Below, piece by piece: positions 2,867-47,692 of a stretch of 49,451 nucleotides of DNA (positions are counted from its first letter, which is position 1; the number at the start of each line of letters is the position of its first letter). The notes beneath the pieces are model-generated. The model was not told where the DNA came from and made no database searches. It saw only the letters and a list, made by a program, of their open reading frames with translations. The translations under genes were made by a program, and so were the position numbers. The stretch is from a virus. Lineage: Duplodnaviria > Caudoviricetes. The stretch covers positions 1 to 49,451 of the IMG/VR virus record IMGVR_UViG_3300049019_000012. One strand, 5' to 3'.

Positions 2867-4282
2867 TTATTTGCGACGACGCCCGCCCATGACTTTGCCA
2901 GCCCACACAATCGGGTTCTTGTAACCGCGCTTGCGGCCCAGGTCAGCGAGTGCGCCCAGGTCTTTGCATGCGGCTTGCTCTGCCAGTAGGCGTGCACGTG
3001 TTGCGCGCTTGTCGTCGTCGGTCGCTTCCTGCAGTTCGCCTTCGCCCACTTCCAGCGGCTTCGCTTCGGCCTTCAGCAGCTTGCCGCAGCCTGGGCAGCA
3101 TTCTGGCAGCGGCCTGCGTATCTGCATGAAACACTGTTCGCACGTCACTGGCGGCGGTGGCGCGTTGTCGTTCGCGGCTTTCTTGCCCATGGCGCGGCCC
3201 AGCCAGTGTTCGGACCAGTCGCGTTCATCATCGGGGAAGCCGTGCCGGTTGCTGTTGCCCGCGTGGTCCAGCAGCTTGGCAATGTCTCCTGGACGCAACG
3301 CACGCCCCCAGCGCTGCATCACCTGGGACAGCGACGCGGACGGCGCGGCGTCGATCACGCACTTAATCTGCACGTCGCGCTGCGCCACTGCCGCGATGTC
3401 GAAGCCTTCAGCGAACAGCCCTTTATTCCACAGCACCTTAATGCGCCGGTCAGCATACGCCTGGATGACGCGGCGGCGTTCGGACTTGTCGGTGTTGCCG
3501 TCCAGATGCGCGGATGGAATGCCCGCCTGGTTGAACTGGTCGGCCATGTACTGGCTGAACGCCAGCGACGGTGCGAAGCCTACGGACAGTTCGTCGTTCG
3601 CATGCTTGCGCCAGTGCGTGATGATGTCGCCCAGCAGCTTCGGCTTATCCACCTTGGCTTCGACTTCGCCCGCAATAAAATCGCCCATGCGCTTGCCGAC
3701 GCCGGTCACGTCCATGCCACCGTTCGGAACCCATATGCGGTAGTTCGATAGAAATCCGTTTTCCATCAGCCAGGCGGGCGTCGGACCAGGAACCATTTCA
3801 TCGAAATGGGCATCTAGTCCGCTGCCATCCAGCCGCCATGGCGTGGCAGACAGCCCGATAATCAGCGTGCCGTTGTCGTGCAGCCACTTGATGACCGCAG
3901 CCCATCCTGCAGCGCCGCTGTGGTGGCATTCATCCACGATTGCGATGCGTGGCGCTTTGAGTTTCTGCAGGCGGCCTTTCAGCGTGTCGATGCTGCAGAT
4001 TTGAACCGGCATCCGCGTGTCCATCGGCATGCCAGCTGCAATAAAACTGTGGTGAATTCGGAACTTATTAAATGTCTTGGACGTTCCATCCAGTAATTCG
4101 ACGCGATGGCAAATAAACCATGTGTCTGCGCCTTTGGCTGCAGCCTGGCCCGCCATGTAAGACGCCATCACCGTTTTGCCGCTGCCGGTCGGAGACTGTA
4201 GCAGCACACGGCGATTGCGTTTCAGTGCAGCGCGCGTTCGGCTTACCAGGTCTTCCTGGTCTTCGCGTAGTTGTATCTGCAT
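2867..4282 (-). CDS. SF2 DEAD/DEAH-like helicase with C-terminal zinc ribbon
   Basis: SPTGSGKT, DECHH, SAT, QRWGRALR, CEQC/CPGC; likely start MQIQLRE at 4282. Confidence 0.92.
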   Translation of the reverse strand: MQIQLREDQEDLVSRTRAALKRNRRVLLQSPTGSGKTVMASYMAGQAAAKGADTWFICHRVELLDGTSKTFNKFRIHHSFIAAGMPMDTRMPVQICSIDTLKGRLQKLKAPRIAIVDECHHSGAAGWAAVIKWLHDNGTLIIGLSATPWRLDGSGLDAHFDEMVPGPTPAWLMENGFLSNYRIWVPNGGMDVTGVGKRMGDFIAGEVEAKVDKPKLLGDIITHWRKHANDELSVGFAPSLAFSQYMADQFNQAGIPSAHLDGNTDKSERRRVIQAYADRRIKVLWNKGLFAEGFDIAAVAQRDVQIKCVIDAAPSASLSQVMQRWGRALRPGDIAKLLDHAGNSNRHGFPDDERDWSEHWLGRAMGKKAANDNAPPPPVTCEQCFMQIRRPLPECCPGCGKLLKAEAKPLEVGEGELQEATDDDKRATRARLLAEQAACKDLGALADLGRKRGYKNPIVWAGKVMGGRRRK

Positions 4283-4307
4283 AATTCTGGCTGTTAGGAA
4301 ATCACCA

Positions 4308-4338
4308 ATTATAACGCGCAACAAATGCGCGATGGCAA
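4308..4338 (-). promoter_or_regulatory. Candidate helicase promoter with palindromic spacer
   Basis: TTGCCA-N19-TATAAT; spacer contains CGCGCA-N5-TGCGCG (4315-4331). Confidence 0.45.
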
Positions 4339-4366
4339 TAACTACAGCACCAGGGGAGAATGTGAA

Positions 4367-4795
4367 ATGCCCCATGCGGGATACGAGATCGCAAAGCTGT
4401 TGCTGGCGATGACGAAGACAGCGGCGGCGGTCTTCCTGCACTCAGAAAACCACGCATCAGAAGCGGACGCGGTGATGCTGTGCGCAGCGGTGTACATCGG
4501 CCAGTGCGAGAAACGCCCGATGACGGCGGGCAAGCTATCGGCGTACATCGGCATGCCGCGTCCTACTGTGCTGCGCAAACTCGGCGAACTGGAACAACGC
4601 GGCCTGGTCAGCGCGAACAAGAAGAAGCAATGGTGCATCGCTGACAATTCGCCGAAAGTAGCAGCGCGAATTGCTGCGGCGATTGATGCGTTATTGCCAC
4701 TTATTCACAATGCTGAAGCGATACTGTCCAGAATGGACACTCGCAGGATTGCGTCGAAACGACGACAAGAATTAGACAGAAATCAATCGCGGTGA
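4367..4795 (+). CDS. Winged-HTH transcriptional regulator (possible repressor)
   Basis: PMTAGKLSAYIGMPRPTVLRKLGELEQRGLV wHTH pattern; GGGGAG RBS; divergent from helicase. Confidence 0.75.
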   Translation: MPHAGYEIAKLLLAMTKTAAAVFLHSENHASEADAVMLCAAVYIGQCEKRPMTAGKLSAYIGMPRPTVLRKLGELEQRGLVSANKKKQWCIADNSPKVAARIAAAIDALLPLIHNAEAILSRMDTRRIASKRRQELDRNQSR

Positions 4796-4923: not shown

Positions 4924-6072
4924 GTGAATCCGGGAATCTACGACGACATTCCGAACGCCGACTATCACGGCGGCGAAGGCATCAGCAATTCAGGCTTGGC
5001 GATCATTCGACGCAGTCCGCTGCACTACCGTGCGCGCCAGCTGGCAGCAAACGACAACGAACCCACGACGGCGCAGGCCATCGGCACGGCGTTCCATGCG
5101 CTGCTGCTGGAACCGGAATTGTTTTACAAGGAATACTGCCTGGGCATTCGCCAGTCGGATTATCCGGATGCCATCGACAGCCGCGACCAGCTGGTGGCGA
5201 TGGTCACGAAGCTGAACGAAGGCCGCCTGCCGAAGCTGTCCACCACTGGCACGAAGGACGAACTGGTGGCGCGCATCGTGGAAGCGCTGCCGACTGAAAG
5301 CCGCACGCCGGAAGTGTTGGCAGGCTTCCAGGAAATGAAGGGCGCGGAACTGAAAGCCACCATCGAAGAACTGAACGCGCTGCGTACTGGCCTGCTGTCC
5401 ACCACGGGCACGATGGAACAGCTGGCCGTGCTGCTGAAGACCGAAGGCGTGGCCGTCACGCTCTGGAAGGATTTGAAAGCCGAATGGATGGCGAACAACG
5501 GCCACCGCAACGTGCTGACGCCTGAAGTGTGGGACCAGCTGATGAACATGCGCGACGCTGCTATGGCGCATCCTATCGCCCGCGCGCTGCTGACCGGCAA
5601 GCCTGGCAAGGCTGAACGCTCGGTGTATTGGATCGATGAAGCCACTGGCGAACTATGCCGCTGCCGTCCTGACTTCTGGCGCGAAGACGATATCGTGGTG
5701 GACCTGAAGACCACGGAAGACGCCAGCCCGGAAGGCTTCGGCAAATCGATTGCGAACTGGTCCTACGACACACAGGACGCGTTCTACCGCGACGGCTGCG
5801 CTGCTGTCGGCAAGCCGCTGCGTGCGTTCGTGTTCCTCGCCGTCGAAAAGTCCGCCCGCGTGGTCGAAGGTCAGCCGCTTGGCGTTGCTGTGTACCAGTT
5901 GGACGAAGCAGGCCGCGACCTGGGTCGTGCGAAGTATCGCGCAGACCTGGCCACCTATGCCCAGTGCAAGGCGACGAACAAGTGGCCCTGCTACAGCGAC
6001 AAGCTGGAAACGATCAGCCTGCCGCAGTGGCACATGAACCGCAATGCGCACCTTGTCGAAGGTGTTGCATGA
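4924..6072 (+). CDS. RecE/exonuclease VIII-like PD-(D/E)XK nuclease
   Basis: YH...ISNSGL, GTAFHALLLEPE, CRCRPD, VDLKTT, YDTQDAFY motifs. Confidence 0.88.
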   Translation: MNPGIYDDIPNADYHGGEGISNSGLAIIRRSPLHYRARQLAANDNEPTTAQAIGTAFHALLLEPELFYKEYCLGIRQSDYPDAIDSRDQLVAMVTKLNEGRLPKLSTTGTKDELVARIVEALPTESRTPEVLAGFQEMKGAELKATIEELNALRTGLLSTTGTMEQLAVLLKTEGVAVTLWKDLKAEWMANNGHRNVLTPEVWDQLMNMRDAAMAHPIARALLTGKPGKAERSVYWIDEATGELCRCRPDFWREDDIVVDLKTTEDASPEGFGKSIANWSYDTQDAFYRDGCAAVGKPLRAFVFLAVEKSARVVEGQPLGVAVYQLDEAGRDLGRAKYRADLATYAQCKATNKWPCYSDKLETISLPQWHMNRNAHLVEGVA

Positions 6073-6167: not shown

Positions 6168-6187
6168 ACCACGGAAGCAAAACACAC

Positions 6188-7151: not shown

Positions 7152-7352
7152 ATGACCGCAGCAGCACAGAAATATTTGACCAGCAAGGAAGCCGCAGAAC
7201 TGTTGCGCACGAAGGTGGGCACGCTCGCGAACAAGCGTGTGAAGGGCGAAGGCCCGCCCTTCGTGAAGTTCGGTTCAAAAGTCCTGTACGAAGTGGAAGC
7301 ACTGACTGCATGGCTGAAGGCGGCTAACGACAACCAATCAAGCGACAAATGA
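7152..7352 (+). CDS. Excisionase-like HTH protein
   Basis: YLTSKEAAELL...TLANKR..GEGPPFVKFGSKVLY pattern of HTH_17/Xis proteins. Confidence 0.8.
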   Translation: MTAAAQKYLTSKEAAELLRTKVGTLANKRVKGEGPPFVKFGSKVLYEVEALTAWLKAANDNQSSDK

Positions 7353-7987
7353 AAAATCTCATTCAGAAAATTCAAGACTACTCTGCCAAGCGCTCCGCCG
7401 TGATTTCGTTCAGCCCTAACGGGCGCATCGACACCGACGACGTTATTGTGTCTGCTTCGCAGTTCATGGAACTTATCGGCGCAGCAGCAAACGACAACAG
7501 CGAAGGCTTCGCGGTAACGCTCGACGCCCTGGGCTATTCCAGCCTGGCGCACGTGCTGGGCCGCGCGTTCGACCAGGCGGCGAATGGCAAGGGCAAGGAA
7601 CGCCACGCCAATGAACTGCCGTTCGACCAGCAGCCGATGCAAACCATTGCGCAGGCCCACGGCGTAGGCTTCCTGACTGGCCAGGCGGCGAAGAAGTCCC
7701 AGGAAGCGCTGGGCCTGCCGCACGATGCGAAAATCCGCGAACTGCTGGGCGCAATCAACTACCTGGCGGGCGCGGTGATCTTCCTGGAATCGAAGCCACG
7801 GACGATTAGCGTGATGAAAACCAGCGCAGTGGGTCGCACTGGCGAATCCTCATCAAGCATCGGCGGCCCGTACTCCGACAGCAAGCGCCAGGCGATGAAA
7901 GACGGCGCATGCAAGGCGGACAGCCTGGGCGATGTTTGCGTGTCCTGCCGCCCAAACGGGCCATGTAAGGCGGTGGCGCGTGACTGA
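7349..7987 (+). CDS. Conserved-looking phage hypothetical protein
   Basis: ATGA overlap; AFDQAANGKGKERHA segment; no function recognised. Confidence 0.75.
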   Translation: MKNLIQKIQDYSAKRSAVISFSPNGRIDTDDVIVSASQFMELIGAAANDNSEGFAVTLDALGYSSLAHVLGRAFDQAANGKGKERHANELPFDQQPMQTIAQAHGVGFLTGQAAKKSQEALGLPHDAKIRELLGAINYLAGAVIFLESKPRTISVMKTSAVGRTGESSSSIGGPYSDSKRQAMKDGACKADSLGDVCVSCRPNGPCKAVARD

Positions 7988-9782: not shown

Positions 9783-11030
9783 TCACGCAGCAATCTTGTG
9801 TTGTTGTTTCTTCACAACGTTGCGTTCAAACCACTTTTCCCACTTCTTCATGGCTTCGCGCATCTGCGGCAAATAGTCGGCGTGGTCGTAATGCTTGCCG
9901 CCAGTGTCGCCGCGTGCGTGTTGCTGGATCAAGTCGCGCGTGAACCTGTCCACGCCTGCGCCGTCGCCCATGCGTGATTTCCATGTGCGGCGCAAGTCGC
10001 GGGCCTGGAAGGGCGCGCAGCAGTCCAGCGATGCGATGTGATGCGACACGGCCAGGAAGCCCATGCGGTCGGCCTTCGATCCTGTGCGCGCCGGGAACAG
10101 CGGGCCGTCGCCGTGCCAACGCTTCAGGCGTTTGAAAATCTCGTTCGCCTGGGCGGGCAGGGGGATGAAGTGCGGTTTCTTCCGGCCCTTCGTCTTGTGT
10201 GCTGGAATGGTCCACAGCGCGCGCTTCGTATCGACTTCGCAGCCGTCCACCTTGATGGTTTCCTGCACACGCTGGCCGCACAGCATCACCAGGCGCGCGC
10301 AGTCGCCCGATCCTTCATCCGTCAGCGATTCCCACACGGCGGCCATTTCTTCGGGCGACAGGTTGCGGCTGCGTTCCTTGCTCGCGCGCTTGTCCTTCGG
10401 CACGGCCATCACAGGGTTCACCAGAATGCCCCAGTCGTATGTCACGTCCTGGGTGTAGTCGTTCGTGGACTTCATCGCCCAGCCGAACGCTGACGACATG
10501 TAGGTGCGCTGGATGTCTGCCGTGCGCAGCGCGCCACGCTTGGCTGCTGCCGTCAGCGGCACGCGAATGTCCGATGGCGTCACGTCGCCCGCCAGCTTGC
10601 TGCGGCCCAGCTGGTCGGCTGCGTTGAACTTGCCCGTCAGCAGAACGTTTTCGACGTGGCCAGCTGAACCAGCGTCGCGTGCCTTCAGGTGCGCAACGTA
10701 TTTCTTGAACAGGTTTTCGACAGTCGGCACTTCGCCGATGAATTCAATTGCGGCTTTCGGCTTCGATGACGACTTGACCAGCGGCCTGATGTCGTCGCCG
10801 AACTTCGTCCTGGCGTCGGCAAGGGTCATATCCGGGTATCGGCCCAGCTGCTTTTTGCCGCGCTCGCCTGCCTTCTTCCAGTGTGCAAACCAGATGGCAT
10901 TCACGCCCGCGCTGGTCCTGCGGATGCGCAGCCGCAGACTTCCTTCGCCCTTGTTGCGGTTGCCGTCGTTAAGCACAGTTTCGCCCTGGCAGTCGCGGAT
11001 TGCGGCATCAATTTGGGTTTTCGTCAGCAC
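9783..11030 (-). CDS. int: Tyrosine integrase with N-terminal arm-binding domain
   Basis: LGRYPDMTLADAR arm domain; catalytic R (GQRVQE), K (KTK), RDLRR, H (QQHAR), Y (KHY); next to att sites. Confidence 0.93.
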   Translation of the reverse strand: MLTKTQIDAAIRDCQGETVLNDGNRNKGEGSLRLRIRRTSAGVNAIWFAHWKKAGERGKKQLGRYPDMTLADARTKFGDDIRPLVKSSSKPKAAIEFIGEVPTVENLFKKYVAHLKARDAGSAGHVENVLLTGKFNAADQLGRSKLAGDVTPSDIRVPLTAAAKRGALRTADIQRTYMSSAFGWAMKSTNDYTQDVTYDWGILVNPVMAVPKDKRASKERSRNLSPEEMAAVWESLTDEGSGDCARLVMLCGQRVQETIKVDGCEVDTKRALWTIPAHKTKGRKKPHFIPLPAQANEIFKRLKRWHGDGPLFPARTGSKADRMGFLAVSHHIASLDCCAPFQARDLRRTWKSRMGDGAGVDRFTRDLIQQHARGDTGGKHYDHADYLPQMREAMKKWEKWFERNVVKKQQHKIAA

Positions 11031-11056: not shown

Positions 11057-11336
11057 CAGGGTGCCCTACAGGGTGCCCCAGGCGGTCAAGTGACCGGCCT
11101 TTGAAGCATTTACAGTTTTGCCGCTGCGGGTCAAATTCGCGTTGTGGATCAACGGGATGCGATTGCTTCAGGTGATGCGCAATTATACCCGATTATAGGG
11201 CGCAAGCAGCCTTCCAAGCTGAGGACGGCGGTTCGATTCCGCTCACCCGCTCCAGTAAATGATTTGCAGTGACAATTAGTTATTGGAAGTCTTCAGCTTC
11301 GAAGCTGAATACGTCAGGGTGCCCTCTAGGGTGCAC
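11057..11336 (+). other. attP-1: arm repeats flanking the 3' half of tRNA-Gly(TCC)
   Basis: CAGGGTGCCC at 11057, 11069 and 11315, TAGGGTGCAC at 11327; core 11207-11254 CAGCCTTCCAAGCTGA...GTTCGATTCC...CACCCGCTCCA. Confidence 0.85.
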
Positions 11337-11412
11337 TACAACCGTAGTCACTGCGTCACAGGCACTTCTTGAATTTTTGCGATGCACTTTGTGGGAACGT
11401 TTTCCACAAATT

Positions 11413-11438
11413 AAAAAGCCGCCTCAGTGGGCGGCTTT
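11413..11438 (-). terminator. Intrinsic terminator after the methyltransferase
   Basis: AAAGCCGCC/GGCGGCTTT hairpin with T-run on minus strand. Confidence 0.7.
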
Positions 11439-11458
11439 CTGTTGACAATGGAAACGAA

Positions 11459-12298
11459 TCAAGCCGCGAATTCGGCGGAAGGCGTGTTGTCGTTCGCTGG
11501 CGTAGGAAGTGCGAGCGGTATGCGCCGCTTCGCAATCTCCATGTAGTCGTCGCTAATTTCGATCCCTACGAACTGGCGTCCATGTGCAACGGCCATCTTG
11601 CCGGTGGTGCCGCTGCCCATGAACGGGTCCAGCACAAGTTCGCCAGGATTTGACCAGCTTAGGATGTGGTCACGCGCCAGGGCTTCGGGAAAGATCGCTG
11701 GATGTTCATACGCCAACCTGTCTGACGCCGACGCGCCGCCGCTGACGATATATGTCCAAACGTTCTGCTTCTTCACTACTTCCTTGATCGGCACTTCCTT
11801 TTTGGTGAACTCGCCTTCTGTGTTGCGATTTACGGCGCGGAACCGAGTAGTGCGCTTGTCGTTCCACTTGTTGCGGCGCGGCACTTCGATGGCGTTCAGC
11901 CTAGGTGCTCCCTTGCTGAACACGAACATGAATTCAAACGCCTGGTAATAGCGCGTCGCGCCGCCGACTGGTGCGGGATTGTCTTTGTGATAAATCATGG
12001 TGTCGTGCAGGTTGAAGCCACACTGCATGAAGAACAGCGCCTGCTTGAACGATGTGCCTGTTTCGCTGCCGTTCACGGTTGCATCACCGACAACCCATAC
12101 GACAACGCCGCCGTGTTTCGTGACGCGGTACAGTTCGCGTGCGATGGTTTCAAAGTCGAAGTGGAAGCCGTTGTATGTGCGTAGGTTGTCGTATGGCGGG
12201 CTGGTCACGGTCAGGTCGATGCTGTCGCTTTCCAGAGTTTGAAGAACCTGCGCGCTGTCTCCCAGGTGAAGTTTGAAATTGTCGTTCGCGGGCGTCAT
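11459..12298 (-). CDS. Beta-class N4-cytosine/N6-adenine DNA methyltransferase (orphan)
   Basis: TSPPY before HPAIFP and VLDPFMGSGTT; likely start MTPANDN at 12298. Confidence 0.92.
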   Translation of the reverse strand: MTPANDNFKLHLGDSAQVLQTLESDSIDLTVTSPPYDNLRTYNGFHFDFETIARELYRVTKHGGVVVWVVGDATVNGSETGTSFKQALFFMQCGFNLHDTMIYHKDNPAPVGGATRYYQAFEFMFVFSKGAPRLNAIEVPRRNKWNDKRTTRFRAVNRNTEGEFTKKEVPIKEVVKKQNVWTYIVSGGASASDRLAYEHPAIFPEALARDHILSWSNPGELVLDPFMGSGTTGKMAVAHGRQFVGIEISDDYMEIAKRRIPLALPTPANDNTPSAEFAA

Positions 12299-12422
12299 TT
12301 CGTTTCCAAGTCGAGTTAAAGAAACTCGATTCTCGCACACAACGATTCGTTGTGGAATGTTATTTGTACATCTTTTGCGTTCACGCAACTTCACGCGGCA
12401 TCATGCATGCTGAAATTGATTC

Positions 12423-12687
12423 CAGGGTGCCCCTCAGGGTGCCCTACGAGGGAAAGTGACCCATCATTGATGCGTAAGGGTTTTTCTCGATTTTCGACGT
12501 TTTCTGCTGTTGAGCCAACGGGTTAGGATGGTCGCCCGTGAGTTGCAATGATGTAGCGTGACTACTTCAATTCAGCCTTCCAAGCTGAATACGAGGGTTC
12601 GATTCCCTTCACCCGCTCCAATAAAATCAATGACTTACAGCGCAAATTGCTTGATGCTTAAAACTCGGGGTGCCCCACAGGGTGCCC
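12423..12687 (+). other. attP-2: arm repeats flanking the 3' half of tRNA-Gly(TCC), with an IHF site
   Basis: CAGGGTGCCC at 12423, 12435 and 12678, CGGGGTGCCC at 12666; core 12573-12620; AATCAATGACTTA (12625-12637) matches IHF consensus WATCAANNNNTTR. Confidence 0.87.
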
Positions 12688-12731
12688 CGCCAGGAAAGTA
12701 ATCACGTCGCGTCGTCCGCAATAATAATGTG

Positions 12732-19462: not shown

Positions 19463-20038
19463 TCAGGTCTTGATGATTTTGTTCAGCACCACGGAAGGCT
19501 GAACGTTCGGGTGTGCGCTGCCGGAGCCCTGCGATGCGTTGGTGATCGATACGCCGGTCGATGCGCTATTGATGGCTGCGGCCTGCTGCAAATAGAAAAT
19601 CGAAGAGCCGCCAGTACCGCTGGAACCGCTTGAATACGTGGCGGCTGCATTATGGCCGTGTGTGTGGCCTGGATCGTTCAGCGTGTTGGCGTGCGTGTGT
19701 GCGGGCATCTGCGCCGTGGTCAGCGTGTGCGTCTCGCTGCCGCCAGCTGCGCCCAGCGTAGTGCCAGTGATGCCGCTGGCTGCGCTTGTCACGCGATTAG
19801 CAGCTGCGCCGCCCATGTTGTCTTTGCCGATGACGGCGCGACCACGGCAATCTGGTAGGCTGAAATGTGTACCGTCTACAGCGCCGTAAGTCGTTCCGAT
19901 GGCCGCAAACAGGTTCGGGTAGTCGGTTCGCAGTAGGGACTGGCCGTAGCACATAAGCCAGTCAGTCGGCGCGGTAGTGCCTGCAAAGTCCAGAACGGTG
20001 CCGGTCATACCGGCCCACAAGTCAAGTAATCGGCTCAT
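19463..20038 (-). CDS. Tail collar domain protein (short fibre)
   Basis: FAGTTAPTDWLMCYGQSL...YPNLFAAIGTTYG...FSLPDCRGR; HPNVQPS ending. Confidence 0.85.
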   Translation of the reverse strand: MSRLLDLWAGMTGTVLDFAGTTAPTDWLMCYGQSLLRTDYPNLFAAIGTTYGAVDGTHFSLPDCRGRAVIGKDNMGGAAANRVTSAASGITGTTLGAAGGSETHTLTTAQMPAHTHANTLNDPGHTHGHNAAATYSSGSSGTGGSSIFYLQQAAAINSASTGVSITNASQGSGSAHPNVQPSVVLNKIIKT

Positions 20039-20325
20039 ACACTCCCTTGTTTGAGGATGGCGGAAACGTCAGGGTTCGCCGCCAGAAATGCCTGCAGCTT
20101 AGCCACAGGGTCGTTGTCGTTTGCTGGCGCTGGCTTCGTCACCAACGCCCAGGCCGTGCCGTTCCAGTGCGGCACTTTGCCTGCAGGGATGCTCTGTGGT
20201 GGCTGCACAAGCGTGCAGCGCGCAGGGACAAGCCATACGCCAGGTTCCAGCGGGCTTTCGTCGGCTTCGGTTTGGCCTAGCAGCAGGCCGGAATTGTCGA
20301 ACTGATATGCGGTCTTTGAAGTCAT
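20035..20325 (-). CDS. Tail fibre assembly-like protein
   Basis: ADESPLEPGVWLVPARCT...PP...WNGTAW. Confidence 0.75.
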   Translation of the reverse strand: MTSKTAYQFDNSGLLLGQTEADESPLEPGVWLVPARCTLVQPPQSIPAGKVPHWNGTAWALVTKPAPANDNDPVAKLQAFLAANPDVSAILKQGSV

Positions 20326-21734: not shown

Positions 21735-23840
21735 TCATTGCGGGCTGTACCAACCGTTGATCTGCAGGCTAGCGCCGTTGGCGCCAGGATATCCGCCGTC
21801 TGCGTATTTCACGCTGACAACTGATGAAGTCATCAGGCCAGTTAGCCCCTTGCCGGTTAGGGCTATTTCCGTGCCAACCGCTCCACCCATCAGCTTTGTG
21901 GTGTCATAGGGGAATGGGAGCGTGTAGCGAATATCACCCGCACCAGTGCCGTTGGTCGTAATCGGAATGTTGATGCTGTAATAGATCAGCCCGCCGTTGC
22001 GCATGTAGTTCGCAGTCACTGCGCCAACCGTTGTAAGTGTCCCGGTTCCGGCTGTTACAGTCGGAGTCCAGGCAAATGCTGCATCCGGCGCATTCCCCGA
22101 TACTCGGTATTCCGTGACGGTGGCGGTGTCGATAAACGGGCGATACTGGAAATTCAGGTCCATGACCCTGTTGTCATAGACGCGTACAGGATTGCCTGCT
22201 GCCACACCGTTTTTGATGTAAATGTTGTAGTCGGCGGTTGTGTAGCCGCACCCCGTGAACTGGTTATCAGTCACGAATAGCCCCGACGTTGGCGTAGCCG
22301 TCAACGCATACTGTATCGACCGGCGCGCAACGTTGTAGAACTTGTTTTTCGTGATGGACATATTGGCAAGATCAGTCGGGCCGGATGGGGTCGCATCAGC
22401 ACACCAAACGCCATGTCCAGCGATATTCCGCATCTCGTTGTTGTCGATATCGACTCTGCGATATGCGTACACGTAAATTGCGCAGGTGTACGTCAAAACC
22501 CAATAGGTCGCATTGGGCGGCGCTTGGTTTGTGTTCGCCACGATACACCGGTATGTACTGCCTCCAGAGCTAACGATCTGCCCAACCGCATACGCTGTCG
22601 CGCCGCTCCATGCTGGGCCAATCGATACCGTGTCGATGCGGTTATTTTTGATGGACGAATCCATCAGTGCGCCGACATAAATAGCCGCCGCGCCCGCCTG
22701 GTTAGCTGGGTTTTGTCCAGCAGAAATAATGCTATTGCCTTCAATAACAATATTGCTGGCCATTGCGGTGTTGCTGCCCCACAGGTAGCTGGAAAAACCA
22801 CAGCTAGACGAGAAATACGAATAATTGCCGGTCGCTATGACGTTATGGCAGCTGGAAAGATTGAATCCGTTACCAGTCACATTGCCGTAAGCAATATTGC
22901 CATGGAACGTCCCGAACTGTGGCGGCGAAAGTGAAGGGCCGCTATCCCAGACTGCCGCGAAAGCATCGTCGCCGCTCGCATAGACGCGGTTTTCAGTGCA
23001 TGTAAAACCATTTGCACCGTCCGAGAAATGGATACCGTCCGCCTTCGGGGAAATCACCACATTACCGTGCACGCGTGTGCGCGTGCTTGCCGAAACCCAT
23101 ACCCCTGCAGACGGAATGTCGTTCAATGTGCAGCGCTCGACGGTGGCATTTGTGGCACCTGACACACTTATGCCAAAACCATAACCAGTATTCCGCAATG
23201 CCGCAGGATCGCTGCGCATACGCACGCCAATTGCGCCGCAATCTACCCCGCCGATGATAAGGCAGTGGTTGTATGCGAATGGCGGAAGCGTGTAATAAAT
23301 CTCGCCAGGGCCTTCCAGCGTGACGCCAGTACCTGAAATTCCAAGCGAGTCAGAAACCTTGTACCGGCCCGCTGGCAGCTTGACCCGGCATCCCTTTATT
23401 GTGGCTGCGTAGTCCAGCGCGGCCCTGATTGCCAAAGTGTCGTCAGCGCCAGAAACAAACGCGTTTGAGCCGTTTAAAACGGTATCGCCAACGGCTCCAA
23501 AATCCTTGACGCTGACGGTTTCCCTTAGCTTGTCTTGTATGGCGCGCGCAATCGCACCTGCTGCATTTTGAATAAATGCAGTCGCGGTCTTGACGATGTA
23601 TGCGGCGATATTTGATAGCTTTGCGCGTGCCCAAACACCTGCTTTTTTGAACGCCCAGGTCTCAGTGCCGTCAAGCGCGGCCGGTTCGGATGCCGCCGCA
23701 TCAGGATTAAGCGCCTCCGTGCGGTTCGTAAGTGCCTGCGCCTGCAGGTTCATCGGGCCGCCTGGGCCGCCCAGCGCTGCCGTAGTGATCGGCAGTTCTA
23801 CGACGTTATCCCAGCCAGGTGTCGGGGTCAGGTTCGACAT
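21735..23840 (-). CDS. Tailspike-like right-handed beta-helix protein (putative depolymerase)
   Basis: VSVKDFGAVGD...DDTLAIRAA pectate-lyase-3-like start; ADGIH and GDDAFA parallel beta-helix repeats. Confidence 0.8.
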   Translation of the reverse strand: MSNLTPTPGWDNVVELPITTAALGGPGGPMNLQAQALTNRTEALNPDAAASEPAALDGTETWAFKKAGVWARAKLSNIAAYIVKTATAFIQNAAGAIARAIQDKLRETVSVKDFGAVGDTVLNGSNAFVSGADDTLAIRAALDYAATIKGCRVKLPAGRYKVSDSLGISGTGVTLEGPGEIYYTLPPFAYNHCLIIGGVDCGAIGVRMRSDPAALRNTGYGFGISVSGATNATVERCTLNDIPSAGVWVSASTRTRVHGNVVISPKADGIHFSDGANGFTCTENRVYASGDDAFAAVWDSGPSLSPPQFGTFHGNIAYGNVTGNGFNLSSCHNVIATGNYSYFSSSCGFSSYLWGSNTAMASNIVIEGNSIISAGQNPANQAGAAAIYVGALMDSSIKNNRIDTVSIGPAWSGATAYAVGQIVSSGGSTYRCIVANTNQAPPNATYWVLTYTCAIYVYAYRRVDIDNNEMRNIAGHGVWCADATPSGPTDLANMSITKNKFYNVARRSIQYALTATPTSGLFVTDNQFTGCGYTTADYNIYIKNGVAAGNPVRVYDNRVMDLNFQYRPFIDTATVTEYRVSGNAPDAAFAWTPTVTAGTGTLTTVGAVTANYMRNGGLIYYSINIPITTNGTGAGDIRYTLPFPYDTTKLMGGAVGTEIALTGKGLTGLMTSSVVSVKYADGGYPGANGASLQINGWYSPQ

Positions 23841-25736: not shown

Positions 25737-26051
25737 CTACATACGGCAGGAAACAATTTCAATGACGATTGTGCGGCGGTCGTTGCGCGCGGGTACGCCC
25801 GTGTAGTCGAAATCAAGGTGGACAGGGTAGTTGTAACCAACCATGCCGCCGTCCAATATGATCGACACGGCGTCGCCGGTCTTCGATGTTTCGGTGACGG
25901 TCAGTCCGGTGGCGGTAACGGTGAAGTCGCCGACGTGCGCGCCGATCAGGGCGCAAACGTCAGTCAGGTCCAGCGTGTAATCCAGCGCCTTGCCCGCCAC
26001 CTTCTGGATGTGCGGCAGCCCGTTTTTGATGGTGTATCCGATATTGTCCAT
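25737..26051 (-). CDS. Small beta-rich virion accessory protein
   Basis: LDYTLD...GG..G..Y...RTI pattern; last gene of inserted cassette. Confidence 0.7.
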   Translation of the reverse strand: MDNIGYTIKNGLPHIQKVAGKALDYTLDLTDVCALIGAHVGDFTVTATGLTVTETSKTGDAVSIILDGGMVGYNYPVHLDFDYTGVPARNDRRTIVIEIVSCRM

Positions 26052-26057
26052 GATCGC

Positions 26058-26534
26058 CTACGCGTTGAATTTGAAAGTGCGCGACTCGGCAGGGAAGCGG
26101 AACGTTCGCAGCGCCGAAGCCACGAACGTTTGCGCGCTGACGCTCGCGCCTGGCGACATGTTCACCTGGCCCGCTGCAGCGGCCAGCAGCCGGTGCCGCT
26201 GCGCGATTGCGCCAGGGCTACTGCTGTTGATCTGGATCGATGTCGCCCCCACCAGGACGCTAGTCTGCTGGCCCAGCGCTGCGGTGCTCGACAGGTTGCC
26301 CTGGCTGGAATTCGCGCCGGTCAGCTGATGCCGCTGCACAGCAGCGCCAGCACTGGACGTACTGGCCTGTGATGCGCCCGCGCCGGTCAGTTTGTGCCGC
26401 TGGGTTATCGCCCCGCTGCTGCTGCTGTTCGCCTGCGTCGATAATTCAGCAGCCAATGCCGCAGACCCGGCAAACACCTGGGCACCAAAGACGCCCGCGC
26501 CAGCAAGGTACTGCGCGCCGTAGACGTTGCTCAT
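26058..26534 (-). CDS. Repeat-containing fibre-like accessory protein
   Basis: About four ~22-aa repeats SS.GA..QRH.L.GA...Q. Confidence 0.7.
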   Translation of the reverse strand: MSNVYGAQYLAGAGVFGAQVFAGSAALAAELSTQANSSSSGAITQRHKLTGAGASQASTSSAGAAVQRHQLTGANSSQGNLSSTAALGQQTSVLVGATSIQINSSSPGAIAQRHRLLAAAAGQVNMSPGASVSAQTFVASALRTFRFPAESRTFKFNA

Positions 26535-28922
26535 TTACGCCACCGTTACGGGCGCTGCAAATGCCTTCGGCGAAGGGCTTTGCGTAGTTGTGCCGTCCGT
26601 GTCACTGACGACAAGGAACCCGACGCCACCAGCTGACAGCGACGTGTTCACAAGCGGCAGCGATAGGACGCCGGAAGCATTCGTGGTCGCCCCCGTGCCC
26701 TTGTCTGACGGTGCCGCGAAACCATCCGGCGCCGACTGGTCGAAGAACGCCCATTTCAGCCCGGTCAGGTTGGCGCGCGGATTGCCGCTGCCGTCAACCA
26801 GGCTCAGCGTGGCGTGCTTGGCATAGAACGCGCCCACAATTGCGTCGTATGCCTTCGCCGATATCGCCGTGATTTCTTGCGATGTGGAGTAGTGCAGGGC
26901 GGAAAACAGCCCGTTCATATCTGCGACAGCGGCGACGTTCGCATTGCTTGCGCCGATTGCCGCGATGGCGGCATGGATCGCATTAAACCCGGTGTCACTT
27001 GCACCAGTGCCGCCCGTGCCAGCAGCATTTCCAGCGGCGTTGATGTTCATCAACACCCACTTTTTGCCAGGGAAGCGCGTCACGCACCAATCGTTGATGA
27101 TGGCGTTTATTGCCGATTCGTAGGTGCTGCGTGCCGTTCCGATGGCGCAATCGCCTTCACCCTGCCACCACAGCACAGCCTTGTGTCCGCCAATGTTGTT
27201 GGCGCGGTCCAGCATCGCGCCATACAGCGAAGTGGTGCTGGTAGATGCCGCCCAGGCAGACGCAGAAGTAGAACCCAGTGCGCACGGGACAAACGCGACA
27301 GGGACGCCAAATGCCATCAGCTGCGTGGCCAGTTTGCCGAAGTAGGAGTTTGTCGCGCTTCCCGAACCCTGCACTGCGTAGGTCGCAGACGCTGCTGAAT
27401 AATTCGACGCGTTCGTTGTCTTAGAAAATGGATCAGTCGATGTTTCGACGTTCGGGCGCCAGCGGCCAGTTTTATCCAGGATCGACGCCGCCCATGCGGG
27501 ATGCGCACCAGGCGCTACAGGCGGCACATAGGTGCCAGCGCCTGCGCCGACGTGGTTCGATTGGCCGGCAACCATGTACACATCGCCGACGCCGACTGCC
27601 ACCAGCGTATTGAACACGGTGGTTTTATTCGCGAACCGCACGGACAAGTCGCCCTGTGCTGGACCGGCCAGTGTAACCGTTGCGTCGAACGCGCCCGAAC
27701 CCATCGTGCCGCCCAGTGCCGCCCACGCCCCACCGTTCCAGCGATATTCAAGGGAAGTCGGCGAGCCGACATAGGTGCCGGAAATGCGCACGCTGGCATT
27801 GCCGCTTCCGTCGCGCTGGAAGATTCGGTAGTCGACAGCCGACTGCGCGAATGACGGCTGCGTAAAGGCTATGCTGTCGGCGTCAACCGTGATGTTTGCG
27901 ATGCTTGGCGAAACTTCCGCCGCGTTCTGGCTGGCTCGCGCTGTCAGCGTGTTTGCAGAGCCAGGCGTCAGGCTGAACGTTGCGGACCAGGTGCCGCTTC
28001 CGATAGTCGCCGACGTGCCCAGCACCCAGGCATTGCTGCCGAACTGCACTTCGATGCCCTGCGGCACGGTGCCGGTGTAGGTGCCGGAAATGACGGATGT
28101 CTGGCCAATCGAACTTCCGGCAGCTGGGCTGGTGATGGCGAGCGCATCAGAAACGGCACTGTTCGCCTGTGCGCGGTACATGTCGCGCCCCAGCGTGGCC
28201 AGTTCGGTCGTGGTGAAAGACTTGTTCCAGTGCCAGATGTTGTTCATAACTGCGCTACCAAACGCAGTAGAACCGTATTGCATCTTCGTGGCGGCGGCCC
28301 ACGTGGAATCAAATTGCGTCGTGGCTGCAGCGCCAGCGGCGTAGCGGGTAATCAGGTTGCCTTGCGCCGTGACATCCAAATCATAGACCGTCACCACGCC
28401 AGAAACGCGCTGGATCAGCGTAACGATTGTCTTATTAACGCCCCACATGGTCTGCGTGGAGCTAGTGCCACGCGGCGCTGAAGTCGATCCGGTTATGGTG
28501 GAATACCAGCCAACGCCGTTGTTCTCGTTGATGAAGAACGCCAGCGCGGTGCCAGCCGTACCAGAAATTCGCAGCACTTCGCGGACCAGGCTGGTGGAAG
28601 GCAGCGCTGCTTGCGTCGTCCAGCGGATCGCAATCAGGAAATCGCCGCTGCCGTCCTGCCAGCCATAGTTCGTTGTGCTGGTGTAGTCGTAGCTTGCGCC
28701 CAATGCGCCAACAACGCCAGGTTCGGCCAAACTGACTAGGTTTTGCGTTCCACTCTTGACCAGCGTCGGCGCTGTTGCGCCAACAAACAGCCACGGCACG
28801 CCGTCCTTGTGGCTCGCGTCGTCAGCCGTGAAGTCCCAGCCCAGGTTAAGGCCGGTCGAATAAGTCGTGTCGGCGCTATTTAGCGCAAGCGGCAGCGTGC
28901 GCTGTGAGTGGGAAACAGTCAT
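26535..28922 (-). CDS. Large virion-associated protein with SGNH/sialate-O-acetylesterase-like domain
   Basis: VGVGDVYMVAGQSN, ALGST, WWQGEGD, LHY; beta-rich N-terminal modules. Confidence 0.78.
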   Translation of the reverse strand: MTVSHSQRTLPLALNSADTTYSTGLNLGWDFTADDASHKDGVPWLFVGATAPTLVKSGTQNLVSLAEPGVVGALGASYDYTSTTNYGWQDGSGDFLIAIRWTTQAALPSTSLVREVLRISGTAGTALAFFINENNGVGWYSTITGSTSAPRGTSSTQTMWGVNKTIVTLIQRVSGVVTVYDLDVTAQGNLITRYAAGAAATTQFDSTWAAATKMQYGSTAFGSAVMNNIWHWNKSFTTTELATLGRDMYRAQANSAVSDALAITSPAAGSSIGQTSVISGTYTGTVPQGIEVQFGSNAWVLGTSATIGSGTWSATFSLTPGSANTLTARASQNAAEVSPSIANITVDADSIAFTQPSFAQSAVDYRIFQRDGSGNASVRISGTYVGSPTSLEYRWNGGAWAALGGTMGSGAFDATVTLAGPAQGDLSVRFANKTTVFNTLVAVGVGDVYMVAGQSNHVGAGAGTYVPPVAPGAHPAWAASILDKTGRWRPNVETSTDPFSKTTNASNYSAASATYAVQGSGSATNSYFGKLATQLMAFGVPVAFVPCALGSTSASAWAASTSTTSLYGAMLDRANNIGGHKAVLWWQGEGDCAIGTARSTYESAINAIINDWCVTRFPGKKWVLMNINAAGNAAGTGGTGASDTGFNAIHAAIAAIGASNANVAAVADMNGLFSALHYSTSQEITAISAKAYDAIVGAFYAKHATLSLVDGSGNPRANLTGLKWAFFDQSAPDGFAAPSDKGTGATTNASGVLSLPLVNTSLSAGGVGFLVVSDTDGTTTQSPSPKAFAAPVTVA

Positions 28923-28925
28923 GCT

Positions 28926-29309
28926 TTAGGTCGGCTGGTTGCTGGTGTAGGTCAGCTGCGGGAAGTCCACAGGGTTGCCGGACGTAATCGCCTGGTCGGT
29001 CGTTTCGTCCGTTACCCACAGCACCTTTGCCGCGCCATCGGTGAACGCAATGTGCAGGTTCGAACCTGCAGAAGCGCCTGCGGATGCATTCGCGGACTTG
29101 CCGCTGGCGCTGGTCAGCAGGCGATTGCTGCCCGACGACGATAGGGTGAAGTCGCCCGAAGCAATGGTGACTTCTGCCAGCTTGTTTCCGGTCACGGTCG
29201 CGTAGTTGTCGCCAGCCGTGTAGCCGGAAATCAGCAGCATCTTCGTTGCGGCGTTCTTGATGGCGTTCAGGCCGCCGTCCAGAACGTCGGCGTGTGCGAA
29301 TTTGGCCAT
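28926..29309 (-). CDS. Hypothetical virion accessory protein
   Basis: Start MAKFAHADVLDGGL at 29309; first gene after late promoter. Confidence 0.75.
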   Translation of the reverse strand: MAKFAHADVLDGGLNAIKNAATKMLLISGYTAGDNYATVTGNKLAEVTIASGDFTLSSSGSNRLLTSASGKSANASAGASAGSNLHIAFTDGAAKVLWVTDETTDQAITSGNPVDFPQLTYTSNQPT

Positions 29310-29340
29310 GTTGAAAAATCCCATTGAAATAGATTGCCAA

Positions 29341-29383
29341 ATGATAGGCCGCACGCGGCGACCTATCCTCTGGTGGGTTTTCC
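29341..29383 (-). promoter_or_regulatory. Putative late promoter for accessory cassette
   Basis: GGAAAACCCACCAGAGGAT-N18-TATCAT. Confidence 0.75.
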
Positions 29384-29997
29384 TACGCCTGCGCTGCAGT
29401 GGTTGGTGCGGTAGCGCCCTGTGCAGTGTGGTGGTGCGTCTTAAGGCCGATGCCGTCCGCAACAACGTTGGCTCCAGTTACGGTGACGTTGCCGCCGTCA
29501 ATCGCCGCGCCGCCGTGGCCAGTAATCAGGCCGTCAACTGTCAGCGCCTGCGTGCAGTGCGTCAGCGGCGTGTTCAGCGTCACGCTGGTTACTGCGTTGA
29601 TCGTGGCTTCCTTGCAGTTCACGATAACCTTTCCGTCGCCCGCTACGGTCACGGTCAGCGTGCCGGTGGCGCTGTTGTAATCCACCGCCGAACCATCAGG
29701 GAACACCACGTGTTCCTGGTCCTTGCTGGCGGCTGGCGCTGGGTGATCGTCCTGGAATATCGCAGGCCCGATGACGGCCTGGCTGGTGTCGCCATACGGC
29801 GCGAATACCAGCCGCTGTTCGCCAGGCCGTGGCGCTGACCATGTGCGCGTCGCGCCAGCGCGGCTTTCGCCCCACGGCAGCCAGTCGGTGGTCAGGCCGC
29901 CGACTTTCATTTTCACGCGGGCGTTCGCTTCGTCCAGTTCGGATACGACGCCGACGCGGATCATGTTCGCCAGCAGTCGTTCTATTTCCGCGCTCAC
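29383..29997 (-). CDS. Baseplate spike gpV-like protein
   Basis: ANMIRVGVV, TDWLPW, WSAPRPGEQ, FPDG...Y, C-terminal HxH tip; GTG 29997. Confidence 0.92.
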   Translation of the reverse strand: MSAEIERLLANMIRVGVVSELDEANARVKMKVGGLTTDWLPWGESRAGATRTWSAPRPGEQRLVFAPYGDTSQAVIGPAIFQDDHPAPAASKDQEHVVFPDGSAVDYNSATGTLTVTVAGDGKVIVNCKEATINAVTSVTLNTPLTHCTQALTVDGLITGHGGAAIDGGNVTVTGANVVADGIGLKTHHHTAQGATAPTTAAQA

Positions 29998-41023: not shown

Positions 41024-41476
41024 TTATGCGACGGCCCCGTTGATGACCTCCGCATTGTCGTTCGCCGCCACCTTGCGATCCTCTGGTGGGTTTTCCTTCA
41101 CCAGGTTGCGCACATGCCGTTCCGACACGCCGATAATCGCCGCCACGTTCACAGGCCGCATGCCAGCGCGCACCATAGACAGTATCGACTGGTCACGAAA
41201 CGCCCGATGAATGTTCGCGCACGTTGCCGGATACATAATTTCCCCGCCGAATGCTTCGCACATCTTCACGGCGTCGATGTAGCCCAGCGCCTTCACCAGC
41301 ATGTGGTCCAGTCCCAGCCGCTTCACAGTCGGCACGTACAGCACCAGCGTTGAATTCCTCGCGCCCGGATATCGCTTATCCCTGCTGTACGCTCGCGGCA
41401 GTTTGCCAATCAGCAATAACGCTTTGTCACGCCCAATAACGTCAGCTATTTCCTGAACACTGGCAGGCAATTCCAT
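41024..41476 (-). CDS. Mor/C-like late transcription activator
   Basis: LPASVQEIADVIG, FGGEIMYP, RDQSI...VAAIIGVSERHVRNLV; upstream of lysis genes. Confidence 0.75.
   Translation of the reverse strand: MELPASVQEIADVIGRDKALLLIGKLPRAYSRDKRYPGARNSTLVLYVPTVKRLGLDHMLVKALGYIDAVKMCEAFGGEIMYPATCANIHRAFRDQSILSMVRAGMRPVNVAAIIGVSERHVRNLVKENPPEDRKVAANDNAEVINGAVA
41054..41096 (-). promoter_or_regulatory. Putative late promoter for lysis/packaging operon, inside activator gene
   Basis: GGAAAACCCACCAGAGGAT-N18-GACAAT. Confidence 0.72.
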
Positions 41477-44198: not shown

Positions 44199-44201
44199 CG
44201 A

Positions 44202-45000: not shown

Positions 45001-45356
45001 GCTGCCCTTTCAGTGGTGGTTGAAATGATTTCCTGCATCCTGCGTTCGACGCCAGCGCGCAATCGCTCGCCCAGCGTTCCGTTCCTACCGATGCGTTCCA
45101 GTCGCTGTTCGCTCGCCAGCAAATCGGTGCCCTGCAGCGCCAGCAGTTCGCGTGCCGTCTGGTCGGTCCACATCCGCTGCACGGTATTGCGCAGCCGGTT
45201 CATTTCCTCATCGCCCCGCCGCTTGCCAACCAGGTTGATGAATGCCTGGCGTGCGCTGGTCGGCATGCGCAGCACGGTGCGTGCTTCACATTCGTGCCGC
45301 CATTCCTCGCTGCTGCCGTCAACTGTGCGCCCGTCGTGCGTGGTGAAAGTCTTCAT
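44997..45356 (-). CDS. Hypothetical protein
   Basis: SEEWRHECEAR motif; TGATG coupling to primase. Confidence 0.7.
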   Translation of the reverse strand: MKTFTTHDGRTVDGSSEEWRHECEARTVLRMPTSARQAFINLVGKRRGDEEMNRLRNTVQRMWTDQTARELLALQGTDLLASEQRLERIGRNGTLGERLRAGVERRMQEIISTTTERAA

Positions 45357-47692
45357 CAGAATGGCCTGTCAGGGTCGTTGATCGGATGTTGTGCTGGCGC
45401 TGGTCGTGCAGCGCGGTTCTTCGGCTGGCTCGGCAACATGAAGTAACGGCCCTTCGCCTTCGGCTTCGCATCCTTGCCGGTCAGCTTCTTTAGCACCTTG
45501 CTTGCGTGCGTGGCCTGGCCCTTGTTTGGCTTGTCGTATCCGATTGCCATCAGCACTTCGCTGGCCGTCATTTCGAAGCCGTGCAGCGCTGGCTTGTCCC
45601 AATCGAACGATGCCAGAATAATTTCCTCTACCGGGTCCACGGCTTCGTGTTCCTTGTTCAGCTTGCCCAGCGCGTCGTTTTCTTCTTCCGTCAGGTGCCA
45701 TTGCTCGCCACGTTTGAAATGCACCAGCAGTTCGGCCCATACCTGTTGCATGTTGATGTCGTGGCGGTAATCGATCCAGGTAACTGGAATGGTCCACCAG
45801 CGGCGATTGCCGGTATCGTCCACCAGGTATTTGTCATCGTTGACCGAAGCGCAGAACACCGTGCGGCGCTGGTATTCCGATTCCAGCCGGTCGTATGGCT
45901 TGCGCAGCTTGTCCATCGCCAGCGGAATGAACGACTTCAGGCGCGCAATGTCGGACTTACGGAACGTCGCATCAAGTTCGCCCAGTTCGACAATCCAATT
46001 GCTCAGCACTGCGGTCTTGCTGTCCTTGTCGGACGGGTCCAGCGTTGCGCCCACCAGCACCAGGCGCATGTCAGCCGGTGCCAGGCGGCGGAACCATGTC
46101 GTTTTGCCGATGCCTTGCGGGCCGGTGAACACCAGGCAGCCGTGGCCTTCGAACCCGACAGGCTGGAACACGGATGCCACAGCCGACAACAGCCAGCGAT
46201 ACATCAGCTTGTCCTTCAGTGCGTTGTCGCCTTCGGTTCGCACGGTGTCCAGCAGTTCCTGGATGCGTGGCACGCCATCCCATGGGCGGCCCTCGATCCA
46301 GTCGCAAACAGGGTTGTATGCGTTACGGTCGGCGATCAGCTTCAGGTAATCGGCCAGGTTCGATTGAGGCATGCGATTGCGCACAGCCATGCTGGTCAGT
46401 TCAGCCAGTGCGCAGTTCGCGGCGTTGTCGATGGTGTACATGCAGCCTGGCAACTTCACTTCCACGGCCTTGCGGATTTGGTTGTAGCGCGCCGTGATGC
46501 CGTATTGCGTCAGCATGAATTCCAGGTTCTCGCGCACGTTCAGCGGCTGCCCCTTGTCCGACAGCAGCGGATACCCAAACGGATTAATCGGCGCATCCAG
46601 CGGGTACAGCGGTTCGTTGTCGTTGGCTGCTTTCTTCGGCAGCGCCGCTTCAATCTGCGCACGCACGGCGTCCAGGCCATCCAGCAGGTGCAAGTCGTTG
46701 AAGTCGGTCGGCTTGCTCGACACATCCGAAAACTTCGGCACAGCCACCATTGCCGCCGCCACCTGGGCCGCCTGTGCTGCCTGGCGCATGCCGTCGTTCG
46801 GCTTGTTCGGGTCTTCGTGCCAGCAGTCGTTATCCGCCAGCATGATGATGATGGCGTTCGGGTACAGGTTCCGCATGGCCGCGCCGACATTGCGCAGATT
46901 GCCGCTGTCGAACGCCACGGCGGCAGGGTAGCCGGTGGCCATGTGCGCGCTGGCACAGGTTGAATAGCCTTCGCCCACCAGGATGATAGGCTGCAGGCCG
47001 CTGGGTTTGTCGCCGATGATGTGGAACGCGCCCCACTTCTGGCCGCCTGGCAGATAGTCGCGGTCACGGCCTTCCAGCATCGGGCTGGCGTTTTCAAATA
47101 TCGCCTGCAGGCTTGCCAGCGTGCCGTCGATCAAGTGCAGCGGGACCAGCAGGCTGTTCGGGATGCCGCGATACACGCCGACACGCAGACCGAAGGCCAG
47201 CACCTGTTTGCGCTCCAGGTAGGCGTGGTCCATGCCTTCGATTTCTTCGGCAGCGCTCCAGATGGCGGCGGCCTTGCGGCAGGCATCGGCACGGCGTCGT
47301 TCGGCTTCGTGTTTTGCCGCTGCTTCGCGTTCGTCGCGCTCGCGCTGGCGCCGGTCGATTTCTTCCTGGCTAATCGGCGTGCGTTCTTCGCTGGCGAACT
47401 TGAACCCGAATGCCTGCGCTTCGGCGATCAGCGAACCGATGGTAACGGTGCCTTTGACGTTGCCGCTGGGCTTGGCTGACTTCCAGGTGCTGCGCGCGTC
47501 GGCTTCGTTGTAGCCATCGCCGCTGCGGCTCCAGTCGTGCCACAAGTCCCAGCCATCCGGCCCCAGTTCGTGCTGGATCGCAAATGCCATGCGTACCCAC
47601 GCATCGCGGTCGCCCGCATTGATATAGGACAGTGCATCCCTGATTTCTTCGCGCGTCAGGTCGCTAAAGTCGTGGCGAGGTTGTGCGGTCAT
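45356..47692 (-). CDS. Primase-helicase (PriCT-2, TOPRIM, VapE/VirE P-loop)
   Basis: WVRMAFAI/WHDWS, VGEGYST, ADND, TDFNDL, GPQGIGKTT, DDTGNRRWW; start MTAQPR at 47692. Confidence 0.9.
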   Translation of the reverse strand: MTAQPRHDFSDLTREEIRDALSYINAGDRDAWVRMAFAIQHELGPDGWDLWHDWSRSGDGYNEADARSTWKSAKPSGNVKGTVTIGSLIAEAQAFGFKFASEERTPISQEEIDRRQRERDEREAAAKHEAERRRADACRKAAAIWSAAEEIEGMDHAYLERKQVLAFGLRVGVYRGIPNSLLVPLHLIDGTLASLQAIFENASPMLEGRDRDYLPGGQKWGAFHIIGDKPSGLQPIILVGEGYSTCASAHMATGYPAAVAFDSGNLRNVGAAMRNLYPNAIIIMLADNDCWHEDPNKPNDGMRQAAQAAQVAAAMVAVPKFSDVSSKPTDFNDLHLLDGLDAVRAQIEAALPKKAANDNEPLYPLDAPINPFGYPLLSDKGQPLNVRENLEFMLTQYGITARYNQIRKAVEVKLPGCMYTIDNAANCALAELTSMAVRNRMPQSNLADYLKLIADRNAYNPVCDWIEGRPWDGVPRIQELLDTVRTEGDNALKDKLMYRWLLSAVASVFQPVGFEGHGCLVFTGPQGIGKTTWFRRLAPADMRLVLVGATLDPSDKDSKTAVLSNWIVELGELDATFRKSDIARLKSFIPLAMDKLRKPYDRLESEYQRRTVFCASVNDDKYLVDDTGNRRWWTIPVTWIDYRHDINMQQVWAELLVHFKRGEQWHLTEEENDALGKLNKEHEAVDPVEEIILASFDWDKPALHGFEMTASEVLMAIGYDKPNKGQATHASKVLKKLTGKDAKPKAKGRYFMLPSQPKNRAARPAPAQHPINDPDRPF

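Follow-up and report, generated by a model that had tools for sequence, protein, structure and literature searches.

ANDN motifs in the proteins of a temperate myophage match the head of alphaproteobacterial ssrA tags and may dock the host adaptor SspB

The ssrA tag, which is encoded by transfer-messenger RNA (tmRNA), is read by the adaptor SspB and the protease ClpXP. The structure of Caulobacter SspB has been solved, and alphaproteobacterial SspB selects on the Asn that follows AND. In E. coli, the tag head AANDENY binds SspB and the LAA end binds ClpX (bioRxiv 2023.11.08.566101; this and all papers below are cited from excerpts). The Caulobacter tag is AANDNFAEEFAVAA, and deletion of sspB slows the turnover of a tagged protein (PMC9393093). 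SspB is found only in some proteobacteria, where it also delivers RseA (PMC8138137). Here we analysed the motif ANDN in a 49,451-base virus record (IMGVR_UViG_3300049019_000012), which is rated 100% complete and was studied over its whole length (the window). The window is a temperate myophage with a helicase 53–58% identical to those of phiRSP, Persinger, KA2-1, ep3, Mica and kin. Six-frame translation gave nine ANDN copies in eight genes, preceded by Ala in six copies and by Pro in three, as follows:

3164..3178, minus strand: AANDN in the DEAD-box helicase (gene 2867-4279), in the linker from the helicase core to the C-terminal Cys cluster.
5044..5058, plus strand: AANDN in the exonuclease VIII/RecE-like protein (gene 4924-6072), residues 41-45, adjoining an indel-prone segment.
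7320..7334, plus strand: AANDN in the Xis-like helix-turn-helix protein (gene 7152-7352), near the C-terminus, ANDN followed by five residues, no AA end.
7484..7498, plus strand: AANDN in the unknown protein 7349-7987, directly N-terminal of its conserved domain.
11462..11500, minus strand: PANDN, six residues and AA as the C-terminal tail of the DNA methyltransferase (MTase), 12 residues from ANDN to the stop.
12278..12292, minus strand: PANDN near the N-terminus of the MTase, MTPANDN from the likely start at 12298.
20113..20127, minus strand: PANDN in the tail-fibre assembly protein (gene 20035-20325), in a linker ahead of the C-terminal segment.
41027..41068, minus strand: AANDN and nine residues ending in AVA, the tail of the Mor-like late activator (gene 41024-41476).
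46616..46630, minus strand: AANDN in the primase (gene 45356-47692), in the linker joining the primase and helicase domains.

The statistics were computed on 67 hand-picked window genes (15,273 aa), and the eight ANDN-bearing genes were identified by PHROG scans. In these genes 0.17 copies of ANDN were expected against nine observed (Poisson 3.5e-13, or about 6e-8 once corrected for the 160,000 possible 4-mers). Within-protein shuffles (n = 2000) gave a maximum of 3 copies, and the 11 letter permutations of ANDN had 3 matches altogether. ANDN was the strongest 4-mer outlier, with the runner-up six orders weaker. When the pattern GCN AAY GAY AAY was searched on both strands of the window, nine matches were found; each lies in a real gene and in its reading frame, and none is antisense or out of frame. 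A preliminary description of this DNA had reported nine copies in eight genes and a chance expectation of well under one copy; every copy was found at its place, and both the computed expectation and the shuffles agree with that estimate.

The probable host was approached through the attachment (att) sites. Two tRNA-Gly(TCC) 3′ halves lie beside the window integrase and flank the MTase:

12573..12620, plus strand: attP-like core, tRNA-Gly(TCC) 3′ half, taken as the phage's own and used as host marker.
11207..11254, plus strand: second, divergent tRNA-Gly(TCC) 3′ half, adjoining the integrase.

The first was taken as the phage's own core because the bases that follow it match those at the att-like site of Mica. 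The host search covered 301 Pseudomonadota genomes, in 13 of which this core was exact; 16 genomes carried it with at most one mismatch, and all 16 have the alphaproteobacterial two-piece tmRNA. Such 3′ halves are broadly conserved, with 94–96% matches also in Firmicutes and mycoplasmas. From the att core, the tmRNA type and tags of the matching genomes, and the nearest named exonuclease homologue (74%), which lies in a Bradyrhizobium chromosome, an alphaproteobacterial host is probable, and Hyphomicrobiales are the most likely group. The core of Klebsiella phage KA2-1 (25612-25668) matched records of Methylobacterium and Microvirga at 100% identity along 48 nt and occurred within three mismatches in 14 of the 301 genomes, all with alphaproteobacterial tmRNA. 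The core of Burkholderia phage Mica (22713-22770) likewise matched a Methylobacterium record, with 100% identity along 52 nt. Alexa gave partial alphaproteobacterial matches only, and the searches for PPpW-3, HeidiAbel, Mano and phiRSP were ambiguous, with no clear host; the best match of HeidiAbel, a model phage on E. coli K-12, was alphaproteobacterial at 90% (sample of 23 alphaproteobacterial and 3 other genomes).

All 26 alphaproteobacterial tags collected begin with ANDN, including those of all 16 att-matching genomes (21 tags were called by ARAGORN and 5 by a regular expression that required AND and AA). The fifth tag residue is variable (Y, F, K, V, N or E), and the phage copies vary likewise at this position. 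The 13 exact-core genomes have 12-residue tags of the form ANDN, six residues and AA; three alphaproteobacterial tags, each of about 22 residues, hold two copies of ANDN. The sspB gene was present in five of five att-matching genomes checked, directly downstream of the tmRNA gene, and its product is a homologue of PDB 2QAS/2QAZ. In one genome (G287) a further, partial match to SspB lies away from this locus. Three of three gamma- and betaproteobacterial genomes with related prophage regions also carry sspB, and the tags of three gamma/beta genomes begin with ANDE, ANDD and ANDE. The preliminary description had proposed reading the host tag and looking for sspB, and both came out in its favour, with the host assigned from att alone. 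Its parallel with tmRNA tags held for the alphaproteobacterial head, which the motif equals, and was weak for E. coli: ANDE and ANDD are at background in the phages, and the Tyr of AANDENY is absent from the window copies.

Neither a tmRNA gene nor sspB was found in the window. The ANDN copies are in-frame parts of phage genes rather than tmRNA-encoded residues and so fall outside the class of ssrA tags, though they probably work like them. Compared with tmRNA DNA, the phage copies showed no likeness past 12 nt, and no resume signal was found upstream.

We favour the reading that the copies are docking sites for host SspB, which would tie phage DNA enzymes and regulators to ClpXP, and we regard this as reasonably likely. 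In the att-matched host group, ANDN is exactly the part of the tag head that does not vary. Host SspB would grip ANDN and tether the phage proteins to ClpXP. Copies with AA or VA at tag distance, those of the MTase and the Mor-like activator, would be complete degrons. Internal copies in the helicase, primase and exonuclease would serve as tethers through which ClpXP could take hold of weak ends, in the manner of RseA delivery by SspB. ClpXP could then remove early replication and recombination proteins, Xis included, by turnover or by stripping, and the purpose might be low protein levels in the lysogen or clearance when packaging takes over.

The ClpX-binding end of the tag was looked for at the C-termini. 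In the window, ANDN is paired with an AA or VA end in two of nine copies, at the C-termini of the MTase and the Mor-like protein. AA at tag distance occurs in the MTase, whose 12-residue tail has the length of the native tag in the att-matching genomes; the AVA of the Mor-like protein comes near to this, and the other seven copies lack it. Across nine family genomes there were 18 C-terminal copies (no more than 16 residues before the stop), of which five had an AA or VA end, always at 12–13 residues; among the other genes, 26 of 466 had such an end (p = 0.004). In other ANDN-rich viral loci the AA end was present in 18 of 30 C-terminal tails against 49 of 471 (p = 5e-10). The background genes for these counts were taken by a crude longest open reading frame rule. 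The integrase, an Nmad5-domain protein and two right-end genes of the window end in AA without ANDN; it is possible that these ends are direct ClpX degrons.

The ANDN enrichment is real, selected and family-wide. The preliminary description had called for a look at related phages, and all ten named relatives carry the motif, with 2–10 copies each by six-frame count (phiRSP 9, Mica 9, ep3 8, PPpW-3 6, Persinger 8, Alexa 5, FoX1 2, KA2-1 7, HeidiAbel 6 and Mano 10). Together with the window these 11 genomes hold 79 copies, 76 of them distinct. In automatically called genes of the family there were 59 ANDN against 1.2 expected, and ANDE and ANDD occurred twice each, at background level. All four ANDN positions vary synonymously across the family. 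Its members show a motif that is short, lies in linkers and termini, does not depend on position, persists where domains have been exchanged and is gained and lost, with exposure judged from alignments. Read from the sequences, ANDN is behaving as a protein-level short linear motif, selected as amino acids and arising repeatedly at non-homologous places.

Outside the family, an ANDNEP-coding pattern was found in about 200 stretches of IMG/VR (an estimate from 38 of 64 parts of the database) compared with 31 for a permuted control, and several of these loci hold 3–10 ANDN copies within 20 kb or less. A different kind of prophage-like region, from an alphaproteobacterial genome (G263:C38:10000-69999), has 11 ANDN in 60 kb, four of them with an AA end 11–14 residues from the stop. 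In the 301 bacterial genomes the (A/P)ANDN pattern mostly occurred 0–5 times per genome; the motif is therefore a trait of mobile elements. A single outlier (G102, 97 matches) was rejected, as its matches are mostly in a 282-bp tandem repeat unrelated to the phage motif; this repeat, at C1:1892990-1908808 and 2633554-2660555, is probably a giant repetitive protein gene. A scan of the genome contigs with the exonuclease gave no match, and a terminase scan matched three contigs. Two of these are gammaproteobacterial prophage regions without ANDN in 140 kb, which share with the window only structural, lysis and Mor-like genes. The third is a contig of a metagenome-assembled genome, and its primase has ANDN.

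Alignments with homologues support the placement of the copies in linkers or termini, as had been noticed at the outset. The helicase site is also present in Mica and PPpW-3. In the exonuclease, the motif columns are kept as A in 108, N in 119, D in 117 and N in 98 of 120 homologues; RecE chain 3H4R differs in sequence at this site, and a single-sequence fold was not used owing to its low mean predicted local distance difference test score (pLDDT 37.7). The Xis homologue P0122 reads SNDN at the site, with a new ANDN after it. In the family of the 7349 protein exactly one ANDN was found in 49 of 120 homologues (0.17 expected), 9 N-terminal and 40 C-terminal of the domain. The tail-fibre assembly site reads ANDN in Mica and ep3 and ANDD in phiRSP. 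Mor-like homologues have ANDN in 24 of 53 distinct sequences, three of these 24 with an AA end (a few reading frame picks are doubtful). The primase linker has ANDN in 16 of 64 distinct homologues. In four of these, Mica, phiRSP, L009 and L011, the segment upstream is unalignable.

Both MTase copies of the preliminary description are present. The MTase probably begins with the ATG at 12298, which makes the copy at 12278-12292 N-terminal. The 29 other distinct MTase loci (38–58% identity) have ANDN in no frame, and judged by these homologues the motif is an addition to both ends of the window MTase. The MTase region (11207-12620) is also flanked by repeated GGGTGCCC boxes at about 11058-11080, 11317-11336, 12425-12446 and 12668-12690. 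It looks like a small att-bounded cassette inserted in the phage attP, and possibly it is excisable.

Several observations weigh against docking to an alphaproteobacterial SspB. ANDN is retained in relatives whose isolation hosts include E. coli, Pseudomonas, Acinetobacter and Ralstonia, despite the ANDE/ANDD tags of gamma- and betaproteobacteria, and the SspB/degron pairs of Caulobacter and of E. coli can work orthogonally to each other (PMC8138137). The att support for alphaproteobacterial hosts is clear in only two of seven relatives tested, and the 11207-11254 copy of the window was unmatched within three mismatches in the same 301 genomes. Seven of the nine window copies are heads only, with neither an AA nor a VA end, and with AA alone the family count falls to 2 of 18 (p = 0.24). 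The exonuclease of a Microvirga chromosome (P0098) reads ANEN at the motif site. Finally, the family shows a codon bias beyond background (AAC 67/76, GAC 59/76, the copies not being independent). For part of the family, ANDN is consistent with alphaproteobacteria as hosts or as hosts of recent ancestors; this does not account for its retention in coliphages.

The position of the copies could suit a use of SspB other than degradation. Most are internal, single per protein and placed in inter-domain linkers of DNA enzymes, and of the 63 distinct copies in the nine family genomes, 45 are further than 16 residues from the stop. The bivalent SspB dimer might then be a scaffold or shield, which co-localises helicase, primase, exonuclease and Xis or blocks other proteases. 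We consider this improbable, since the C-terminal copies are enriched for AA or VA ends at tag distance, which points to ClpX engagement, and SspB is known as a delivery adaptor (PMC8138137, bioRxiv 2023.11.08.566101). The preliminary description had also offered titration, where the phage copies would act as decoys that slow tag-dependent proteolysis or stress signalling of the host. SspB is indeed scarce in E. coli (176–356 dimers per cell; PMC9382460), and the SspB homologue of phage pf16 has been proposed as a competitor (PMC5587285). Titration nevertheless fits poorly and is very unlikely: nearly always there is one copy per protein, spread across enzymes and regulators and not repeated in an abundant protein, two copies were never seen among the 120 homologues of the 7349 protein, and the capsid, portal, sheath, tube and fibres of the window have none.

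ClpA also binds the ssrA tag, and this or another host factor conserved in alpha-, beta- and gammaproteobacteria, or an unrecognised phage protein, might read ANDN instead of SspB. Such a reader would account for the unchanged ANDN of phages that were isolated on gamma and beta hosts, and for an SSB site common to the enterobacterial members and absent from the window and Mica; moreover, several proteases read the tag (PMC9382460). It is still an unlikely explanation, given that all four residues match alphaproteobacterial tags exactly and that sspB adjoins the tmRNA gene in those bacteria. A reader made by the phage itself is less likely, as the window lacks sspB and has only generic genes in common with 12 other ANDN-rich loci (helicase, exonuclease, small endonuclease, MTase, terminase, portal and capsid); none of these shared genes is an unknown one, and most of the 12 loci are partial. 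A by-product of a DNA or RNA motif, such as a piece of tmRNA or a site for recombination, uptake or protein binding, is hardly credible. In its favour, the first-Asn codon is always AAC and the Asp codon always GAC in the window, with variation seen in relatives only, and the family leans to the same codons. Against it, the degeneracy is confined to third codon positions, the favoured Ala codon differs (GCG here, GCC in other loci), and neither a resume signal upstream nor flanking tmRNA likeness was found. With nine of nine copies in frame on the coding strand, ANDN is no DNA-level repeat of the uptake or Chi kind. The preliminary description had placed the constraint at the protein level and had named copies equally common out of frame or on the non-coding strand as the sign of a DNA motif; it was right on the first point, and the second pattern did not appear.

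A literature search, mostly outside subscription journals, found nothing on ANDN in phage proteins. The host link, made by att core and tag head together, is new here. We propose tentatively, as a reading less likely than not, that a temperate myophage family may have made its proteins of replication, recombination and late regulation into clients of alphaproteobacterial SspB-ClpXP by a proteome-wide degron code, and that this code and the Hyphomicrobiales-type att cores may mark alphaproteobacteria as hosts in which phages that plate on Klebsiella, Burkholderia or E. coli form lysogens unseen. The lifestyle of Jilinvirus has been called enigmatic, with intact integrases in some members and no lysogeny observed, and prophages of this group were reported in E. 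coli and Aeromonas (PMC11990801). If true, hidden alphaproteobacterial hosts would explain the intact integrases without lysogeny on the plating hosts. Use of host ClpXP by phages is known so far for single proteins; the adaptor-binding half of a tag across many unrelated proteins would, if true, be a new layer of post-translational control in phages and would supply many natural SspB substrates. ANDN may also be a host marker, which together with att cores bears on the presence of lysogeny genes in phages that do not lysogenise their plating hosts.

Other features of the window were observed. It carries a ParB-like gene in addition to the integrase; these and the other AA-ending genes named above lie within 478-1431, 1913-2431, 9783-11030 and 48764-49437. 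The baseplate module is interrupted by four extra genes (25737-29465), of which one encodes 795 aa with a SASA carbohydrate-esterase domain and another a Gp77-like adaptor. A pectin-lyase-like tailspike lies at 21735-23840.

Compared with described systems, the window shares its gene set and the ANDN copies with the related myophages of Iiscvirinae/Jilinvirus, Micavirus and Coatlandelriovirus, whose records, as displayed, make no mention of the motif. Phage pf16 likewise engages the SspB pathway (PMC5587285); in the cited excerpt pf16 encodes the adaptor, whereas the window phage encodes the ligand and no sspB was found in it. Lambda O and MuA are phage DNA-handling proteins under host ClpXP (PMC8138137, PMC7804408), as proposed here, but their signals (an N-terminal degron and RRKKAI, respectively) are direct ClpX degrons and not copies of the tag half that the adaptor binds, with one protein each in the sources cited. 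RseA(1-108) is chromosome-encoded and delivered by SspB to ClpXP and thus offers a model for the internal tethers (PMC8138137, PMC5587285); it differs in that its sequence, as listed there, is without ANDN and in being a single host regulator, not a proteome-wide phage feature. In relation to the native alphaproteobacterial ssrA tag with SspB and ClpXP, the phage copies are genome-encoded, mostly internal and mostly without the ClpX end, and usually have no aromatic residue after ANDN. They are like it in the ANDN head, and the MTase tail also shares the AA end and the 12-residue length.

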